Shown in pieces: positions 44,858 through 60,833 of a stretch of 64,000 nucleotides of DNA (position 1 is the stretch's first letter; every line of letters starts with the position of its first letter). The notes under the pieces are model-generated. The model saw nothing but the letters and a program-made list of their open reading frames with translations. It was not told where the DNA came from and made no database searches. The stretch spans positions 160,001 to 224,000 of the forward strand of contig CAVPCQ010000017.1 of NCBI GenBank assembly GCA_963702425.1, written 5' to 3'. The position numbers and the translations under genes were made by a program. Origin of the DNA: an uncultured Acidobacteriota bacterium (lineage in GTDB: Bacteria > Acidobacteriota > Polarisedimenticolia > J045).

Positions 44858-45823
44858 TCAGGCCACCCGCCGCCGCAGCGCGTCGAGCGCCTCGCGCAGC
44901 TCGGTGACGCTGTCGACGAGGCGCGCGTCGACCGCGCCCAGCACGCCCGCGTAGGCCTCGGCCGCGTCCCCCCCCACGATCAGACCGACCCCGGCCCCCA
45001 CCAACCGCCGCAGCCTCTGCAGCTCGTGCGGAAGGCGCGTGTCGTCGGGCGGATAGATCAGCGACAGCGCTACCCCGCGCGCGGCACTCTGGCGCGCCGC
45101 CGCAGCGATCTCGTCCGCGGGAAGATCGATGCCGAGGTAGACGACGCGCCAGCCGGCCGCCTCGGCGACGAGCGCCGCCATCAGCGCGCCCAGCTCGTGG
45201 ATCTGGCCAGCCGGAGTGGCGACGACCAGCGCCGGCGCGTGGGCCTGCGGTGACCGGGACTGTCGCGCCCCGACGAGCCAGGCGCGGATCGCCGCGGTCG
45301 CGAGGTGCTCGTGCCGGATTCCGAGCCGCCCGTTGCGCCAGCCCGCACCGATCTCTTGCAGCAGCGGAACGAGCAGTTCCTCGAGCAGCTGCGGAAGGGT
45401 CAGCGTGAGCTCCGCATCGGCAAGCGCCTGTTCGAGGGCGGCCCCGTCCAGCCGTTCCGCCGCCGCGATGCATCGCGCAAGGGTCTCGCCTTCGGAGCGG
45501 ATCGCTGCGGGCCGCCCGGCCGTGCCGGTCCCGGGACGCGGACGCGCCTCGTCCTGCGCGACGAGCTGCTCGAGTTCCTCGAGCGGGAGCCGCGCCACGA
45601 AGCCGATGCGCCGGCCAGCGTCGAGCGCCTTCCGGATCAGCGTCAGTCGCGCGATGTCCGCATCCGAGTAGAGGCGGTGCGCGCCGGGGGTGCGTCCGGG
45701 GTCGACGGCGTGGTAGCGCCGCTCCCAGGCCCGCAGGACGTCGGGGGAGAGGCCGGTGGCACGGACGACGACCTGCATCGGGTGCCGGGGCTGGTGGTTG
45801 CGGGGGTTTCGGGGTTCGCTCAT
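44858..45823 (-). CDS. carH: MerR-family B12-binding photoreceptor (CarH/LitR-like)
   Basis: LRAWERRY MerR HTH; W-x9-EH ([12 protein letters not shown]); QIHELG His ligand; YLG and ALS Rossmann motifs. Confidence 0.85.
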
Positions 45824-46557: not shown

Positions 46558-47256
46558 ATGACCCGCTCGATCCGCTCGCTCTTCGTGACCGCCCTCGCCG
46601 CCCTGGCGATCCTGGTTCCCTCGACCGCCCTCGCCGCCGATAACGCGGTCTACGTCGTGCACGGTATCCCGGGGGCCGTGGTCGACGTCTACGTCAACGG
46701 TGGCCTCGCGCTCGAGGACTACACCTTCGGGACCGTCGTCGGACCGCTGCCGCTCCCCCCCGGGACCTACACCGTGGAGGTCTTCCTGGCGAACTCCGAC
46801 CCGACGACTGCCGAGGCGGTCATCCGGCTGGATGACGCCGCGCTGCCGGGCGGCCTGAACCTCTCGCTGGTCGCGGCGTTGACCCCCGGCGGCACGCCGG
46901 CGATCCTGCCCTTCGTCAACGACGTCTCGCCGGTGATGCCGAACTTCGGCCGCCTCGGGCTGCGGCACGCGGCCGACGCCCCAGGCTTCGTCATCAACTC
47001 GCGTGGTATCGGCCGCGTCAACTTCTCCGCCGGCAGCGGAATTGACCTTGACGTGCTCGCCCGGACCTACACGCTCCCCTTCGCGCTCTTCAACGGCGGC
47101 AACGGGATGCCGGTCATGGGGCCCGAGTTCCTGACCGTGAAGACCGGCACCTTCACCATCGGCTACGTCGTGGGCTCCGCTCCCGCAGGGAACCTCTCGT
47201 TGGTCACGCAGGAGATCCCGCTCGAGACGATGAAGGCCGCCCGCGCGCGGCGCTGA
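46558..47256 (+). CDS. Secreted DUF4397-like protein
   Basis: Signal peptide; VYVVHGIPG, VDVYVNG, LRHAADAP repeat. Confidence 0.8.
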   Translation: MTRSIRSLFVTALAALAILVPSTALAADNAVYVVHGIPGAVVDVYVNGGLALEDYTFGTVVGPLPLPPGTYTVEVFLANSDPTTAEAVIRLDDAALPGGLNLSLVAALTPGGTPAILPFVNDVSPVMPNFGRLGLRHAADAPGFVINSRGIGRVNFSAGSGIDLDVLARTYTLPFALFNGGNGMPVMGPEFLTVKTGTFTIGYVVGSAPAGNLSLVTQEIPLETMKAARARR

Positions 47257-47307
47257 CCCTGCTCCGGGGCCTCCCTGCGGCCCCGTTCTCCTTCCTCCCC
47301 CGCACCG

Positions 47308-47342
47308 CCGGCCGTGGGCTTCGTGCCCACGGCCGGTTTTCT
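47308..47342 (+). terminator. Rho-independent terminator
   Basis: CCGGCCGTGGGC-TTCGT-GCCCACGGCCGG followed by TTTTCT. Confidence 0.85.
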
Positions 47343-47374: not shown

Positions 47375-47911
47375 TCAGTTCGTCTGCGTCTCGAGGTCGG
47401 ACTTGGGGCTCGTCGTCTTCGTCGCGCGACACGGACAGCCGTCCTTGTTGCCGCAGTTGCACGTGCCCAGGCAGTCGTCGCGATCCTTCGAGACCACGGT
47501 GCCGCACCATTCGACGGTGATCCCCTCCTTCGCCGCCGCGAGCAGTCCGGCCGGCAGCAACTCCGCCGGGAGCGCGGCGAAGCTGCCAAGCGGCCGGGCG
47601 ACCTGCCTGGCCTCGGGTTCGTGCCCGAGCGTGGAGAGCCGGTCGCGCAGCCGGGCGAACGCCGTCGCCGAGACGAGCGCGCTGCCGTCCATCGCGCGGC
47701 CGGCCGGCTCGCAGCCGGGAACGGAGATCTCGGCCAGAACCGTGGGTCCCTGGAGCGCGCGGATCGTCGTCACGTGCTGCTGGAGATCGCAGATGTAGGC
47801 GATCTCGAGTGGCGGCGGAGCAGCGGCGGCGGCCGCGGCTGGGACCGCGAGCACGGCAAGGACGACGAGCAGGGCGGGATAGGTACGGGTTCGGAGCGGG
47901 ATGGGAAGCAT
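47375..47911 (-). CDS. Secreted Cys-rich hypothetical protein
   Basis: RBS AAGGAGG; signal peptide; C-terminal CLGTCNCGNKDGCPC. Confidence 0.7.
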   Translation of the reverse strand: MLPIPLRTRTYPALLVVLAVLAVPAAAAAAAPPPLEIAYICDLQQHVTTIRALQGPTVLAEISVPGCEPAGRAMDGSALVSATAFARLRDRLSTLGHEPEARQVARPLGSFAALPAELLPAGLLAAAKEGITVEWCGTVVSKDRDDCLGTCNCGNKDGCPCRATKTTSPKSDLETQTN

Positions 47912-48125
47912 CGGGGAACCTCCTTCGGCGGTCGCGGACGCCGCGCCGCAGGCAGGAGAGTCGGGCGCAGGGCGCGGGAATGCGAGCAGGAAGCTGCCGG
48001 ACCGTCCCCGCCGCGGGATCGGAGGGCCGCGGGATGCGCCAGTGGCGCGGTGCGCCAGAAAGACGCGGCCAAGGTCACTCTTCAGCCCGGTAATTCCTCG
48101 GAAGGGGCGACGGCAAGGGGCCTCG

Positions 48126-48180
48126 AATCAATGACTTGACCCGACGCGGCGATTCTCCGCCTGCTGGCATCCGCCTTGCT
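48126..48180 (+). promoter_or_regulatory. Sigma54 (-24/-12) promoter with an upstream IHF site
   Basis: TGGCATCCGCCTTGCT 48165-48180 (GG-N10-GC); AATCAATGACTTG 48126-48138 matches WATCAANNNNTTR. Confidence 0.8.
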
Positions 48181-48190
48181 CTATTAGGAG

Positions 48191-48320
48191 CGACAAGATC
48201 AAGTCGGGACATCGCCGAGAGCCAGCGACAGGGCAGATGTTCGATGGGCTCCGAAGGCCCGACCTGACCTCCTCCTCCCCTCCCTTGGCCCCCGGTGAAA
48301 ACCGGGGGCTCGTCTTTTTC
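48191..48320 (+). ncRNA. Putative structured small RNA (possibly related to Acido-Lenti-1; unverified)
   Basis: Lies between a sigma54 promoter and an intrinsic terminator with no credible ORF; TCAAGTCGGG/CCCGACCTGA and ACATC/GATGT helices. Confidence 0.65.
48288..48320 (+). terminator. Rho-independent terminator
   Basis: GCCCCCGGT-GAAA-ACCGGGGGC then TCGTCTTTTT. Confidence 0.8.
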
Positions 48321-48331
48321 GATCGAGCGGA

Positions 48332-49021
48332 TTACGGCCCGGCGCGCCGCATCACCTGCGCGAGCGCGCCGTCGAACATCGCGCGCGTCAGCCTCCCGGT
48401 GTTCGTGTTCTGACGCGACACGTGGTACGAGTCGATCAGCCACCGCCCGGCCGGCAGTTCGTGTTCCGCGCCGTGCGCGAAACGGTGCGCCGCCGCCGGG
48501 AGGCCGAAGCGCGCGAGCAGCGCGTCGTGTCCGATGCGCCCCAGCGCCAGATAGGCCCTGGTCTCGCCGAGCAGCGCCAGCTCGCGTTCCGTCCACTTCG
48601 CGCAGGCGACGATCTCCTCGCGCGCCGGCTTGTTGGCGGGCGGGGCGCAGCGCACCGCCGCCGTGATGTAGACGTCGTGCAGCACCAGCCCGTCGACCCG
48701 ATCCCGCGATTCCGGGGCCGACGACAGCCCCGCGCGGAAGAGTGCGTCGTACAGGAAGAGCCCCGACGCGTCGCCGGTGAACGGGCGGCCGGTCCGGTTG
48801 GAGCCGTGCGCCCCCGGCGCGAGGCCGAAGATCACGAGGCGTGCCGCGGGATCGCCGAACCCGGGGACCGGCCGCGCCCAGTAGACGTCGCCGCGGTGCG
48901 CGCGCTTCTTCGCCCGGCCGACCTGCTCGCGCCACGCCACGAGCCGCGGGCAGGCGCGGCAGTGCACCAGTTCCTGGTGCAACCGCTCGAGGGGACCGGG
49001 TTCGCGGGGGCGAGGCGTCAT
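48332..49021 (-). CDS. Uracil-DNA glycosylase, family 5 (UdgB-like)
   Basis: CRACPRL, GLAPGAHGSNRTGRPFTGD, RCAPPANKP, SYHVSRQNTNTG. Confidence 0.92.
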   Translation of the reverse strand: MTPRPREPGPLERLHQELVHCRACPRLVAWREQVGRAKKRAHRGDVYWARPVPGFGDPAARLVIFGLAPGAHGSNRTGRPFTGDASGLFLYDALFRAGLSSAPESRDRVDGLVLHDVYITAAVRCAPPANKPAREEIVACAKWTERELALLGETRAYLALGRIGHDALLARFGLPAAAHRFAHGAEHELPAGRWLIDSYHVSRQNTNTGRLTRAMFDGALAQVMRRAGP

Positions 49022-49120
49022 GCGCGGCATGCTAACGCCTGGCCCGCGAGCCGGGGCAACGGGCGCGCTTTGCGGGCAGGGTCCGGTCGGCCGGAGAATG
49101 TCTCCCCGCGGAGGATCGCC

Positions 49121-49840
49121 ATGAACTTCGGCCTCATCGATCGTGTCGTCATCGTCACCGGGGCCGCCGGGGCCCTCGGCTCCGTCGTCGCCCGGCAACT
49201 CCTCGGCCAGGGTACGCGCGTCGCGCTGGCGGACCTCGTTCCGGACGCGGTGCGGGCCGAGTCCGGCGCGCGGGCCGCGTCGGAGAGCGCGTGGGTCGCC
49301 GAGGCGACCGACCTGACCGATCCCGCGGCGGTCGCGCGGATGGTCGACGGTACGCTGCAGCGCTTCGGCCGGGTCGATGGTCTCGTCAATATCGCCGGAG
49401 GCTACCGAGCGGGCGCGCCCGTGCACGAGATGACGCTCTCCGACTGGGAGTTCATGTTCGCGATCAACGTCCGCTCGGCGCTGCTCGCATCGCGCGCCGT
49501 GGTGCCTCACTTCCTGCGCCAGGGTTCGGGCGCGATCGTCAACGTCGGCTCACGGGCGGCGCTGGCCGGCGTCGGCGACGCGGGAGCCTACAGCGCGGCG
49601 AAGGCTGTCGTGGTGCGGCTGACCGAGAGCATGTCGGCCGAGCTGAAGGACCGCGGCGTGCGGGTCAACTCGGTCCTCCCCTCGATCATCGACACCGAGG
49701 CCAATCGGGTCGCGATGCCCGACGCCGACTTCGGCCGCTGGGTCGATCCGGAGGCGCTGGCCGAGGTGATCCTGTTCCTGCTCAGCGACGGCGCCCGGGC
49801 GATCCACGGCGCCGCGATCCCGGTCTTCGGGCGGGCGTAG
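49121..49840 (+). CDS. Short-chain dehydrogenase/reductase
   Basis: TGAAGALG, NIAGG, YSAAK. Confidence 0.92.
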   Translation: MNFGLIDRVVIVTGAAGALGSVVARQLLGQGTRVALADLVPDAVRAESGARAASESAWVAEATDLTDPAAVARMVDGTLQRFGRVDGLVNIAGGYRAGAPVHEMTLSDWEFMFAINVRSALLASRAVVPHFLRQGSGAIVNVGSRAALAGVGDAGAYSAAKAVVVRLTESMSAELKDRGVRVNSVLPSIIDTEANRVAMPDADFGRWVDPEALAEVILFLLSDGARAIHGAAIPVFGRA

Positions 49841-57410: not shown

Positions 57411-60400
57411 CTAGTTCCACTCCCCCTGGATGACGAACCCCGCCCAGTAGTACGGCGACGCCCAGCGCTTCTGCCGAGACATCTCCACCTGCGCCGCGCG
57501 CAGGGCTGCGGCGGGGCGCTGGCCGTTCTGCAGCATGCCGCGGTAGAACAGCCGCATCAGTTCGGACGTCGCAAGATCGTCGACGCGCCAGAGGCTGGCG
57601 ACCACGCGCCGCGCACCGCCATACATGAAGCCGCGTGTCAGCCCGACGAGTCCTTCCCCCCGGACCTCCTTGCCGAGCGCGGTCTGGCAGGCGCTCAGCA
57701 CGACCAGCTCGACCGGCAGCCTGAGGTTGTAGATCTCGTTCAGGCGCAGGAAGCCGTCCTGTGGATTTCCGCGCTCGTCGACGAGTGAGAAGACCAGCCC
57801 TGACAGCTCGGGGTGGTCGGTGTCGAGCAGCCCGTGAGTCGCGAAGTGAACGATCTTGAACTGGCCGAGGTCGTCGTTCATCGCCCCCTTCCGGCTGGCT
57901 GCAAAACCGGTGGCTTTCAGCAGCGAGTCGGCCGGCACCATCGACGCGATCATCTCGGCTTCCTCGCGCGAGAACGGCAGGCGGGAGAGCCGCCCGCGCA
58001 TGTCGGACTGGAGGGCGGCGGCGGCCGGCCGCGCTGCGCCTTGCTCCCGTTCCGCGGAGAGGACGCGCGGATCGCTCGCATCGAACACGGGGTCCGCGAA
58101 GACCGCCACCTGCTTCTTGCCGCTCGGCCGCCCCGCGGTCTCGACGCGCACCGCCCCCAGTACGGACGCCGAGGGCAGGCTGATGATCTCGTGGTTCGCA
58201 ATCAGCGGTCTCGCGCCGGCGCCGATCCCGTCCTTGCGGCCGACCGGCTCGGGAAGCGACGCGAACGGCACGTACTCCAGCGCTCCGGGCGCGACGATCA
58301 CGAGCCGCTTGTCCCGCCAGTCCCGCGCGAGGCGTGCGGCCGCCTTGCCCAGGAGCATTTCGCTGAGCGCCGCCGCCTGCGACGCCAGCTCGGCGTCGGC
58401 CCGGGACAGGCGCGTTTGTCGCGCGGCGCCGTTCTCGTCGCTCCTTGGCTGACGGGCAGTCAGCGCGTCGTAGACTGCGCGAGCGAGCTTTTCGATCGCG
58501 GCTCGCGGCGGAAGTTCGTAGCTCGAGATGGACGAGGGCGTGACCGCCCAGAGCCAGCTCCGCCGCTCGCCGAGCGCGATCTCGAGCAGGACGGTGTCCT
58601 CGTCGAGCAGCTGCCCCTGGATCGCGGCAGCCTTGAGCGACTGCGGCTGCGTCAACGCCGCGTAGCGTGGACTGGAAGCGCGAACCTGCGCCTCGACCGC
58701 GCTCAGCTGGTCCGTCAGGTCTTCGAGCTCCTTCGCGGTGTCCGTCGCCTGCGCCTCGGTGTGTTTCCCACCAAGCAGCCGCTCCCGATCGAACGCCTTG
58801 AGATGAACCCGCCGGCGGAGCGCCTGCTCCCTTGCGAGCAGGGCCGCGTCCGCGCCTTCGCGCGGGTCGACGCCGGACTCCGCGAGCATGTCGAGCAGGC
58901 CGCGCGCCCGGCTGCGCTCGCTGAGCTCGAGGGCCAGCGCCATGTCGCCCGCGCCGGACCGCTCGCGCGGCCCGGACATCAGGATCTCGATGAAGAGCGA
59001 GTACTTGTCCTGCACGGTCTCGAAGTACGACGAGCGCCAGTCCCGCCGCGTGAAATTCTGACGCAGCGATTCGCCGATCCGAACCGCCTCCTCGATCTGC
59101 TGCCGCGCCCGATTCCTGTCCCCGGAGGAGAGGCTCCAATCGGCGAGATGCGAGAGGGTCCGCGACTCGAGGTCGCGGGCCCGCAACGCGCGGGCGATCG
59201 CGAGCGCTGCAGTGCTCTCTTCCCGCGCCCTGCTCAGGTCGCCGAGCCGCGCATGCGCGACCGCGAGCAGGTTCAGGGTACTGGCCTCGGCATAGCGGAG
59301 CCCGGCCTCCCGGTACAGCTTCAGCGCCTGCCCCAGCGGTTCCAGCGCCCGGGTGTCGTGGTGCAGGTCGAGTTCGATACCGCCGAGGATCCGCAGCGCG
59401 TACGCCTCCCCGGTAGGGTCCCTGATCTCGCGGCTGAGTTCCAGCGACTGCGTGGCGTAGGCCGTCGCCTCTGCGGTGTTGCCCGCGCTCCGGTGGACAC
59501 GGGCCAGGCCGTTGAGCGCGGAGGATTCGCCGTTGCGCTGGCCCATCTTCCGGCTCGCCTCCAGCGCCCGCCGATAGCGCTCCTGGGCATCCTCCCACTC
59601 GCCGAGATGCTCGTACGCCACCGCGAGGTTGTTCTGGACGGACGCTTCGGCCCGCCCGTCGCCGGCACGGATCGCCGCTTCGAGCGCGCGACCGAAGACT
59701 TCGGTCGACTTCTGGTACTCGCCCGTCCCGTTGTAGATCATGCCCATCCGCGCGAGGATGTTCGCGATCCGCCCCGGCTCACGCTCCGGCGAGGTCAGCG
59801 CAAGGGCTCGCTCGAAGTCCTCGATCGCTGCCGCCACGTCGCCAAGCTCGTAGTGGGCGAGCCCCAGGTCCGACAGAACCCTGCTCTGCCCCGGCCGATC
59901 GTTCGCATCGGCCCGCAATGGCAGCGCACGCTCGTAGTACTCGATCGCCTTCGGCCGGTCGCCGACCCAGCGGTAGTACCAGCCCAGCCGGTTCAGCGTC
60001 TCGGACTCCCAGTAGAGGTCGGCGATCGCCTCGTGGATCGACAGCGCCGCCAGGTACGACTCCAGTGCTTTCGGCTTGTCGTACGCCGTGTAGGCCGCGA
60101 GGCCGACCTGGCTCAGCGCTCGCCCCTCCTCGCGCTTCCGGCCGGTGCCGCGCCAGAGCGCGAGCGCCTGGTCCGCCGCCGCCTGCATTTTCGCGGTGTC
60201 GCCCAGGTCGTAGTAGACGTCGAAGAGCTCGCCCTGGGTTTCCGCCTCGCCGACAGGATCCCCCAGCGCGCGCCAGAGCACGAGCGCCCGCTCGAGCCTG
60301 ACGATCGCCGCTCTCCTCTCTTCGTCGCTCGTGGCGCCGTCGAGGAGAGTGCGGCCTTCGCCCACGAGTCCCCACGCCTCGACTCGCTCGGGGTCGGACG

Positions 60401-60833
60401 CCTCCGCGGGCCGCTTCTCCGCGAGCGTCAGCCCGTACCGTAGCTTCTGCCCGGTGTCCGGATCGCTGGATGCGATCACGAGGCGCCACGTTCCCGACGC
60501 GTCGGCGATCGCCGCCATCTCCAGCGAGACCGGTTGAGTCGCGGCATCGTCGTGCTCGCGCAGCGACCGTCCGTCCGGTGCGATGAGTGTCGCCGACAGC
60601 TCTCCGACGAAGATCTCGATCGAGATCTCGACGTAGTCACGCGCCCGGGCCTCGAAGGTGAACTCATGGGATTCGCCGGCCGGCAGCTCCCGCTCGACGA
60701 CGGCGCCCAGAACGAGGTCCTTCGCTCCGGGCATCGAGCCGGCGAGCGACGCCGAAAGCAGGATCGCGAGCAGCCAGATCGCACCCGACGCCGCCAGCGG
60801 GAGCGGGAGCCCGGGCGGCGGGTGACGATCCAT
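57411..60833 (-). CDS. TPR-CHAT caspase-like protease with an N-terminal signal/TM segment and PPC-like domain
   Basis: Many TPRs; SERSRARGLLD; HFATHG and LSACQT catalytic His/Cys; SLWRVDD, PYYWAGF; TATAAT at 60863-60868 (minus strand). Confidence 0.92.
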   Translation of the reverse strand: MDRHPPPGLPLPLAASGAIWLLAILLSASLAGSMPGAKDLVLGAVVERELPAGESHEFTFEARARDYVEISIEIFVGELSATLIAPDGRSLREHDDAATQPVSLEMAAIADASGTWRLVIASSDPDTGQKLRYGLTLAEKRPAEASDPERVEAWGLVGEGRTLLDGATSDEERRAAIVRLERALVLWRALGDPVGEAETQGELFDVYYDLGDTAKMQAAADQALALWRGTGRKREEGRALSQVGLAAYTAYDKPKALESYLAALSIHEAIADLYWESETLNRLGWYYRWVGDRPKAIEYYERALPLRADANDRPGQSRVLSDLGLAHYELGDVAAAIEDFERALALTSPEREPGRIANILARMGMIYNGTGEYQKSTEVFGRALEAAIRAGDGRAEASVQNNLAVAYEHLGEWEDAQERYRRALEASRKMGQRNGESSALNGLARVHRSAGNTAEATAYATQSLELSREIRDPTGEAYALRILGGIELDLHHDTRALEPLGQALKLYREAGLRYAEASTLNLLAVAHARLGDLSRAREESTAALAIARALRARDLESRTLSHLADWSLSSGDRNRARQQIEEAVRIGESLRQNFTRRDWRSSYFETVQDKYSLFIEILMSGPRERSGAGDMALALELSERSRARGLLDMLAESGVDPREGADAALLAREQALRRRVHLKAFDRERLLGGKHTEAQATDTAKELEDLTDQLSAVEAQVRASSPRYAALTQPQSLKAAAIQGQLLDEDTVLLEIALGERRSWLWAVTPSSISSYELPPRAAIEKLARAVYDALTARQPRSDENGAARQTRLSRADAELASQAAALSEMLLGKAAARLARDWRDKRLVIVAPGALEYVPFASLPEPVGRKDGIGAGARPLIANHEIISLPSASVLGAVRVETAGRPSGKKQVAVFADPVFDASDPRVLSAEREQGAARPAAAALQSDMRGRLSRLPFSREEAEMIASMVPADSLLKATGFAASRKGAMNDDLGQFKIVHFATHGLLDTDHPELSGLVFSLVDERGNPQDGFLRLNEIYNLRLPVELVVLSACQTALGKEVRGEGLVGLTRGFMYGGARRVVASLWRVDDLATSELMRLFYRGMLQNGQRPAAALRAAQVEMSRQKRWASPYYWAGFVIQGEWN

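Follow-up and report, generated by a model that had tools for sequence, protein, structure and literature searches.

Small RNAs (sRNAs) such as Qrr1-5, CrcZ, NrsZ and Pxr are direct outputs of signalling through sigma-54 and its bacterial enhancer-binding proteins (bEBPs), and their genes usually adjoin the gene of their activator; among sRNAs of this kind, CrcZ and GlmY act as a decoy or sponge. Here we describe a candidate for a further member of the class, a stretch of about 130 nucleotides (nt) at ~48190-48319 on the plus strand of a 64,000-nt piece of DNA (the window, meaning the whole stretch that was analysed) from an uncultured bacterium of the Acidobacteriota, a phylum abundant in soils and sediments. 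Our literature search found no paper describing an sRNA or sRNA control in Acidobacteriota. Unlike the genes named above, the candidate has no adjacent activator gene, and it bears no sequence relation to Qrr1-5, CrcZ, NrsZ or Pxr, as judged by the lack of an Rfam match.

Two described systems resemble it in part. In the account given in PMC3045617, glmY and glmZ of Enterobacteriaceae have sigma-54 promoters that require sites for the response-regulator bEBP GlrR/QseF, with IHF bound between these sites and the promoter. The acidobacterial locus repeats this layout, with a dyad ~110 nt upstream, an IHF-like site, -24/-12 elements and a short non-coding RNA, but similarity in sequence or structure is absent (no Rfam match). 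GlmY is a protein decoy and GlmZ activates glmS, neither has a C/U anti-Shine-Dalgarno (anti-SD) tract, and for their genes three activator sites are known, as is a neighbouring two-component system, whereas here there is one conserved upstream block, perhaps two, and no bEBP gene next to it. The second system is the Cuckoo (alpha-r14, RSs0680) sRNAs of Alphaproteobacteria, including NfeR1, in which CCUCCUCCC is described as acting as an anti-SD seed (PMC4615179, PMC10746234). Our locus has the exact motif in unpaired form and, as is described for the cuckoo RNAs, diverges fast outside it with stems maintained by compensatory changes. However, the motif is portrayed in PMC4615179 as repeated in the loops of two to four adjacent hairpins, while here it sits in one linear tract between a 5' hairpin (SL1) and the terminator, and not in a hairpin loop. 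NfeR1 moreover comes from a different phylum, and what PMC10746234 says of its control is a sigma-70 promoter, activation by LsrB and repression by NtrC, stated to be without a sigma-54 signature.

Because the layout is that of glmY/glmZ, and because it is joined to a free tract with the exact CCUCCUCCC motif, we read the locus as an independent gene for a trans-acting sRNA with an anti-SD seed, controlled by sigma-54, an activator and IHF, and give this reading a probability of roughly 0.6. It would most likely represent a new RNA family of a known class, the sigma-54-dependent anti-SD sRNAs.

The predicted control region and its conservation

The genome to which the window belongs (G000) is a metagenome-assembled genome (MAG) of 5.1 Mb and 71% G+C, with a completeness of 91% and a contamination of 5.85%. 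A DNA search over 61 relatives recovered the region from three congeneric genomes (G004, G003 and G001), in the same gene context and with flank identities to the window of 90.6%, 73.3% and 73.4%, respectively; metagenomes add two further distinct versions (L129 = L141, and L147/L170, the latter two identical in the RNA). Footprints were read from an alignment of six distinct sequences (G000, G004, G003, G001, M129 and M147) that begins 200 nt before the RNA and runs on for 15 nt beyond its end. Along this alignment, the proportion of invariant columns rises and falls with the proposed elements: it is 82% in the upstream site and 14% in the spacer that follows, 43% in the IHF-like block and 8% in the next spacer, which contains a 12-nt indel, 82% in the promoter and 11% from -11 to -1, 43% in the 5' part of the RNA, 100% in a 28-nt block at 48259-48286, 79% in the terminator with its U-tail, and 6% in the sequence past the terminator. 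Taken together, the spacers and the post-terminator sequence are 6-18% invariant.

The predicted sigma-54 promoter, CTGGCATCC-N4-TTGCT, occupies 48164-48180 on the plus strand, with GG at 48166-7 and GC at 48178-9, and includes TGGCATCCGCCTTGCT (TGGCAT-N5-TTGCT) at 48165-48180. Fourteen of its 17 columns are invariant, the changes being confined to the N4 spacer, with GG and GC fixed. No sigma-70-like site was found in 47500-48900. The genome carries rpoN (206 bits), hfq (70 bits), 36 matches to Sigma54_activat, of which 32 score at least 178 bits (about 32 bEBP genes), and four genes of the HU/IHF family, for two of which the top-scoring models are those of IHF-beta, with scores below the cut-offs. 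Between the upstream site and the promoter, the IHF-like site AATCAATGACTTG is found at 48126-48138 (plus strand). Its consensus, WATCAANNNNTTR, matches once on the two strands of the window, where 0.02 matches are expected and 2 of 100 shuffles contain one, and its core TCAA-N4-TTR is present in all six orthologues amid a spacer that is otherwise unalignable.

The candidate enhancer, or upstream activating sequence (UAS), is the 22-nt block CGCGGTGCGCCAGAAAGACGCG at 48046-48067, which begins 114 nt upstream of the promoter start and would be bound by a bEBP. Eighteen of its 22 columns are invariant, compared with 14-18% of those in the flanking spacers, and the 22-mers of G003 and G001 are 100% identical to it; its core is TGCGCC-N5-GRCGCG, which in M129 becomes the near-palindrome GCGCC-AGAAA-GGCGC. 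The genome holds 99 TGCGCC-N5-GNCGCR motifs and 39 TGGCNY-N5-TTGCW sites, and only one of the 99, that of this locus, stands in the right order and at the right distance to a sigma-54-like site. A first reading of the DNA, the original prediction, had proposed as activator site a pair of TGCGCCAG copies at 48035-48042 and 48051-48058. Of the two, only the second copy falls into the conserved block. Together with the palindrome GCGCCAGTGGCGC at 48036-48048, the first makes up a distal dyad, TGCGCC-AGT-GGCGCG (48035-48049), that is retained in G000 and G004 only and is absent in G003, G001, M129 and M147, so that its significance as a possible extra activator site is uncertain.

The upstream dyad fits TGC-N11-GCR, and the generic NtrC motif, in the form quoted in PMC10746234, is close to this pattern. 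We regard a link to NtrC and nitrogen as a tentative lead; the main glnA homologue (on contig C18) has no sigma-54-like site or similar dyad within ~700 nt upstream, and an ammonium transporter was not found in the 91%-complete MAG. As a functional class, sigma-54-dependent sRNA genes are marked by conserved and properly spaced -24 GG and -12 GC elements, by rpoN and bEBPs in the genome, and by an upstream activator site, accompanied or not by an IHF site; the first two are found here, and a conserved dyad-like block and the TCAA-N4-TTR core are candidates for the third.

The predicted RNA, its C/U tract and its distribution

Counted from the -12 GC, the transcript is predicted to start near 48190. 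Its 5' domain (48190-48263, plus strand), which includes GCCGAGAGCCAGCGACAGGGC at 48214-48234, is predicted by minimum free energy (MFE) folds and by RNAalifold to form the long imperfect hairpin SL1. The apical CGA-CAGGG...-UCG of SL1 is invariant, and its loop holds CAGGG rather than the anti-SD motif; in the lower stem, the 5' arm shifts register between subclades and the 3' arm, GACCUGACCU, is invariant. On seven sequences, RNAalifold places helices at 48204-07/48259-62, 48211-13/48253-55, 48218-23/48247-52 and 48226-28/48241-43. Our own structure on the seven-sequence alignment has 96.2% of its cells paired, compared with 22-54% when the partners are slid, and both partners have changed in four pairs, of which the 5' hairpin and the terminator hold two each; unaided, RNAalifold finds the same helices and a fifth covarying pair with three pair types.

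Downstream of SL1 follows the proposed seed, the C/U-rich tract CUGACCUCCUCCUCCCCUCCCUU (48264-48286, plus strand), which has three overlapping CCUCC and contains the exact CCUCCUCCC motif, with CCTCCTCCC at 48271-48279, and which is part of the fully invariant 28-column block. Its 17-nt portion CCTCCTCCTCCCCTCCC (48268-48284) has a single match in the window at up to two mismatches, with 0.04 expected. Folds leave some 16-20 nt of it (CCUCCUCCUCCCCUCCCUU) single-stranded between the 5' hairpin and the terminator: the unpaired length is 12 nt (MFE) to 16 nt (centroid) in G000, 16 nt in G003, and 20 columns (79-98, ACCUCCUCCUCCCCUCCCUU) in the consensus fold. The anti-SD motif itself is unpaired in the G000 centroid, G003 and consensus folds; the G000 MFE fold pairs 48273-48274.

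The RNA would end at an intrinsic terminator (48287-48319, plus strand) with a 10-bp stem (8 G-C), a GAAA loop and the tail CGUCUUUUU, the hairpin proper spanning 48287-48310 and being followed by CGTCTTTTTC. Its two loop-proximal pairs covary (G-C/A-U/G-U and C-G/U-A). It is the one terminator-like site in 47500-48900 and lies on the plus strand; the shuffle mean is 0.4. Hfq-dependent base-pairing sRNAs are expected to combine a U-tailed intrinsic terminator with a single-stranded seed, in a genome that encodes hfq, and all three features are predicted here.

The segment also appears to be non-coding, as the original prediction had held. Only two plus-strand open reading frames (ORFs) touch it: that at 48136-48267 (43 aa, TTG) opens before the predicted transcription start, and that at 48237-48413 (58 aa, ATG) crosses the terminator and lacks its ATG in four of the six orthologues (G003, G001, M129 and M147). 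No ORF is conserved across the six, and the indels of 3-4 nt are not codon-patterned. That the transcript encodes a small protein, as the overlap with the 58-aa ORF might suggest, is in our opinion scarcely credible. Beyond this, direct reading of the sequence found every element of the original prediction where it had been placed, and its core, an activator-controlled, sigma-54/IHF-driven non-coding RNA of ~130 nt with an exposed anti-SD tract, is strongly supported by the comparison of orthologues, in which the -24/-12 boxes recur, and by the presence of rpoN.

A search against Rfam 15 gave no match at a family's gathering score, either over the whole window or in ten related loci. Over 47900-48400, six weak matches appear at E<=10, five of them on the terminator or on the C/U tract and terminator: raiA-hairpin (18.4 bits, threshold 43.7), Flavi_CRE (17.0, threshold 42), BSnc120 (16.9, threshold 114), anti-hemB (RF02837; 16.4, threshold 49.5) and MmgR (mmgR, RF00519, suhB family; 16.3, threshold 41, E 0.82), with mir-483 (14.5, threshold 60) on the minus strand over the 5' hairpin. 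MmgR and anti-hemB share with our RNA, as aligned by cmscan, a short single-stranded CCUCCC-type tract just before the terminator; the resemblance is limited to this tract and a generic terminator, and the scores are far under the thresholds. The original prediction had also suggested the Acido-Lenti-1 motif, reportedly described by Weinberg and colleagues in 2010. This identity is rejected, as cmscan found no match to it, either at the gathering score in the window or at E<=10 in 47900-48400, and the likeness ends with the occurrence of both in Acidobacteriota.

How widely is this RNA distributed? Collection scans with a 19-mer yielded 31 genome and 73 metagenome stretches, which were screened with covariance models, model R1 on 100 of the 104 and model R2 on the remaining four plus two re-checks. 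True orthologues among them are six loci (L096, L109, L129 = L141, L147/L170), the rest being chance or coding matches. BLAST of 48150-48325 against the window's own genome returns the query alone, so the locus is single-copy. When R1 was searched over the 23 genomes of the family and R2 over the 119 of the class, strong matches (134-153 bits) were obtained in G000, G001, G003 and G004, four of the five genomes of the genus. There was no match in the fifth (G002, 88% complete), and neither the remaining 18 family genomes nor the remaining 96 of the class gave a strong one; the next-best matches, at 24-34 bits, fall in coding sequence or at unrelated 3' ends, with the exception of one locus, L051, to which we return below. 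So far, the RNA family is confined to one uncultured acidobacterial genus.

Proposed mode of action and alternative explanations

What might such an RNA do? From the arrangement of the elements and the precedents above we infer transcription from the -24/-12 promoter, which would be silent until an activator acts on it. A bEBP bound at TGCGCC-N5-GRCGCG, about 110 nt upstream, would be looped onto the closed complex, aided by an IHF-type bend at TCAA-N4-TTR. The resulting RNA is predicted to fold into the long 5' hairpin and the 3' terminator with the pyrimidine tract of 16-20 nt left free between them, as the folds and the covariation support, and Hfq would probably be bound at the terminator U-tail. 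The tract could mimic the anti-SD end of 16S rRNA and pair with several mRNAs, at ribosome-binding sites of the GGAGG type or at other purine-rich stretches, and translation initiation would be blocked when the signal of the activator is present.

A number of observations weigh against this reading. All orthologues derive from MAGs or metagenomes, and a search for RNA sequencing runs covering 47400-49000 found none listed. The sigma-54 match taken alone is within chance, with one site at up to one mismatch against 2.14 expected and at least one in 86 of 100 shuffles, so that the promoter call rests on position and conservation. No bEBP gene is adjacent, the nearest match being ~27 kb off on the contig (C17:235199). 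The covariation is drawn from six distinct sequences in two subclades, and at least as many double-changed pairs as observed arise in 42 of 500 shuffles; the folding energy is ordinary (z = -0.86 in G000, matched by 39 of 200 shuffles, and z = -1.95 in G003). Runs of 12-17 nt complementary to the C/U tract, with G.U allowed and after removal of a poly-G artefact and of the RNA's own locus, number 121 in the genome against 135 for a reversed control, and the genome scan revealed no single long outstanding target. Last, full invariance over 28 nt exceeds the need of a short seed.

With regard to this target search, 32 of 465 complementary runs of at least 11 nt sit 3-13 nt before a possible start of an ORF with high third-position G+C, many of these starts probably being internal positions. 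The scan was dominated by a run of more than 50 G with single-C interruptions at G000:C21:160045-160102, which may be an assembly artefact.

It is the complete invariance of the 28 nt that keeps alive an explanation in which the sigma-54-driven RNA acts as a decoy or sponge, its 28-nt pyrimidine block binding a C/U-preferring protein or a G-rich RNA. The failure of complementary sites to outnumber the reversed control would agree with this, and the recurrence of a C/U tract with a terminator at further 3' ends (12 genomic sites, 47286-47340 of the window, and locus L205; see below) would fit a shared protein-binding module. However, neither a candidate protein nor a G-rich partner was found, the tract has the exact CCUCCUCCC, presented as the anti-SD seed of alphaproteobacterial NfeR1 in PMC10746234, and constraint from multiple targets can freeze a seed as well. 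We therefore hold a decoy or sponge to be possible but rather unlikely. A different kind of explanation starts from the convergent gene of the uracil-DNA glycosylase (UDG) superfamily, the stop codon of which lies ~12 nt from the end of the U-tail: the hairpin might end UDG transcription, or the sRNA might be cis-antisense to a read-through UDG 3' untranslated region (UTR) and control the stability of that mRNA. The arrangement of RNA and UDG is kept in all six distinct orthologues. The hairpin is a poor intrinsic terminator for UDG, though, since on the minus strand it is followed by CAAGGGAGG, without a U run, and the U-tail exists on the plus strand only. This counters the possibility raised by the original prediction that the hairpin serves only the UDG gene. 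Moreover, a mere terminator leaves unexplained the promoter, the UAS, the IHF-like site, the 5' hairpin and the conservation of the 28-nt tract, and an analogous locus in another genus (G014) has no UDG neighbour. We consider a UDG-related function improbable, with a minor cis-antisense role kept alive by the conserved neighbourhood of the UDG 3' end.

Could the conserved blocks be explained with no functional RNA at all, as DNA-level signals, for instance for the divergently placed gene of a 178-aa protein, or as a result of recent divergence of the orthologues? The lack of listed RNA runs, the restriction to one genus and the chance-level sigma-54 match would be compatible with this. Yet the helices are kept by compensatory changes, and the blocks lie 135-400 nt from the start of the 178-aa gene and point the other way. 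Recent divergence cannot account for the conservation, because it is patchy, following the UAS, IHF, -24/-12, RNA and terminator pattern with spacers at 8-18%. An explanation along these lines is, in our estimation, very improbable.

If the anti-SD sRNA reading is correct, the locus would be a compact unit of enhancer site, IHF-like site, sigma-54 promoter and anti-SD sRNA that links one of ~32 bEBPs to post-transcriptional control. The CCUCCUCCC anti-SD solution of the alphaproteobacterial cuckoo sRNAs would then have arisen in an unrelated phylum and with a different sigma factor. In either case the six distinct sequences provide a model for a new RNA family not in Rfam 15, and the defined promoter should help in finding the cognate activator.

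Related tracts elsewhere and neighbouring genes

C/U tracts of this type are seen before other terminators. The locus L051 of G014, in another genus, was found with the covariance models and is built like the one described here, which counts in favour of our reading. In order, it has GTGCGCCGTTTCGGCGCGG, TGGCGCCGGGATTGCTCTATAGG, a pair of hairpins, ACCUCCUCCCCUC and a terminator; its gene context differs, and it is possibly a distant homologue, or else an analogue under common regulation. Under a strict filter, the window's genome has 12 sites with a C/U tract directly before a terminator, and a sigma-54-like site lies no more than 600 nt upstream of two of these, the locus described here and another on contig C6, against 0.03 expected by chance (our own arithmetic, from 39 sites in 10.2 Mb on both strands). 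At the latter (G000:C6:86865-87391, minus strand), the sigma-54-like promoter TGGCACGACCCTTGCT precedes an ORF of ~118 aa, which by eye resembles sigma-70 region 4 only. Its 3' UTR contains GAGGGAGGAG..CUCCCCCUCCCCCC, then CUGACCGACCUCCUCCC, then a terminator, and has the core GACCUCCUCC in common with the window's sRNA; this 3' element is also present in two further genera (G015, locus L035; G005, locus L058).

In two other families of the class, non-coding stretches of ~280 nt lie behind sigma-54-type promoters (L085:22-300, L086:1501-1770 and L088:1501-1790, plus strand). They carry two to three CCUCC tracts, with a conserved ACGGAYAAGGACCCCCUCCUCC and a second tract, CUCCUCCCCC; L085 and L088 end in a terminator, a gene whose product has a hydrophobic N-terminus comes after each of the three, and the L086 promoter comes directly after the C-terminal helix-turn-helix (HTH) of a bEBP gene. 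Rfam gives no match to any of the three, and BLAST finds no homologue of them in G000. Over the 119 genomes of the class, the pattern TGGCNY-N5-TTGCW-N50-130-CCTCCTCC gives 38 matches (34 distinct sites) against 24 for a reversed control, a weak enrichment, and most matches are coding. A GACCUCCUCC-type tract just before a terminator could conceivably serve the sigma-54 regulons of this acidobacterial class as a common output module, an idea that we put forward as doubtful. Its carriers would be the window's sRNA, the C6 transcript and the ~280-nt RNAs. Were it true, these would form a sigma-54-coupled post-transcriptional layer, made of anti-SD mimics rivalling 16S rRNA at ribosome-binding sites or of RNAs titrating a common C/U-binding protein.

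Further tracts were noted in passing. In the family f4 of the class, three loci (L079, L080 and L081) combine TGGCAC-N5-TTGCT and ~80 nt of non-coding DNA with a (G/A)ACCUCCUCC tract and a hairpin, GAGGGCGGGCCCCCAGACCCGCCCUC, that is conserved and has no U run; TTATCCGCGNAGATA-like repeats are found upstream. In yet another family, L205 (G098:C45:8129-8258, minus strand) has, at a protein-coding gene's 3' end, CUCCUCUCCUCCUCCUCCCUUCC and a strong terminator. Within the window, a second C/U tract, TTCTCCTTCCTCCCCC, is followed by a strong terminator (-29 kcal/mol) at 47286-47340 on the plus strand, ~900 nt from the sRNA. It comes directly after a DUF4397 gene (46558-47256, plus strand), has a homologous tract and terminator in G003 and G001, and may give rise to a 3'-UTR-derived RNA.

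The sRNA element itself is held in a 420-nt gap between two minus-strand genes, with the start codon of one and the stop codon of the other facing it. The former, at 47375-47911, encodes the 178-aa protein, which has a hydrophobic N-terminus and no matching Pfam family, and is transcribed away from the RNA gene; its synteny is kept in G004, G003 and G001. The latter is the UDG superfamily gene at 48332-49510 (PF03167, E 4.2e-26), also convergent to the RNA in G004, G003, G001 and the metagenome loci L129, L141, L147 and L170. Its real start is probably later, as the UDG domain sits at residues 216-384 of the longest ORF. Neither the ORF listing nor the Pfam search of the window places a plus-strand gene downstream of the terminator. 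Elsewhere in the window, a minus-strand gene at 44858-45823 combines MerR HTH and B12-binding domains, the architecture of CarH/LitR-type light-responsive regulators, and another at 57411-60833, likewise on the minus strand, encodes a TPR-CHAT protein of 1140 aa.

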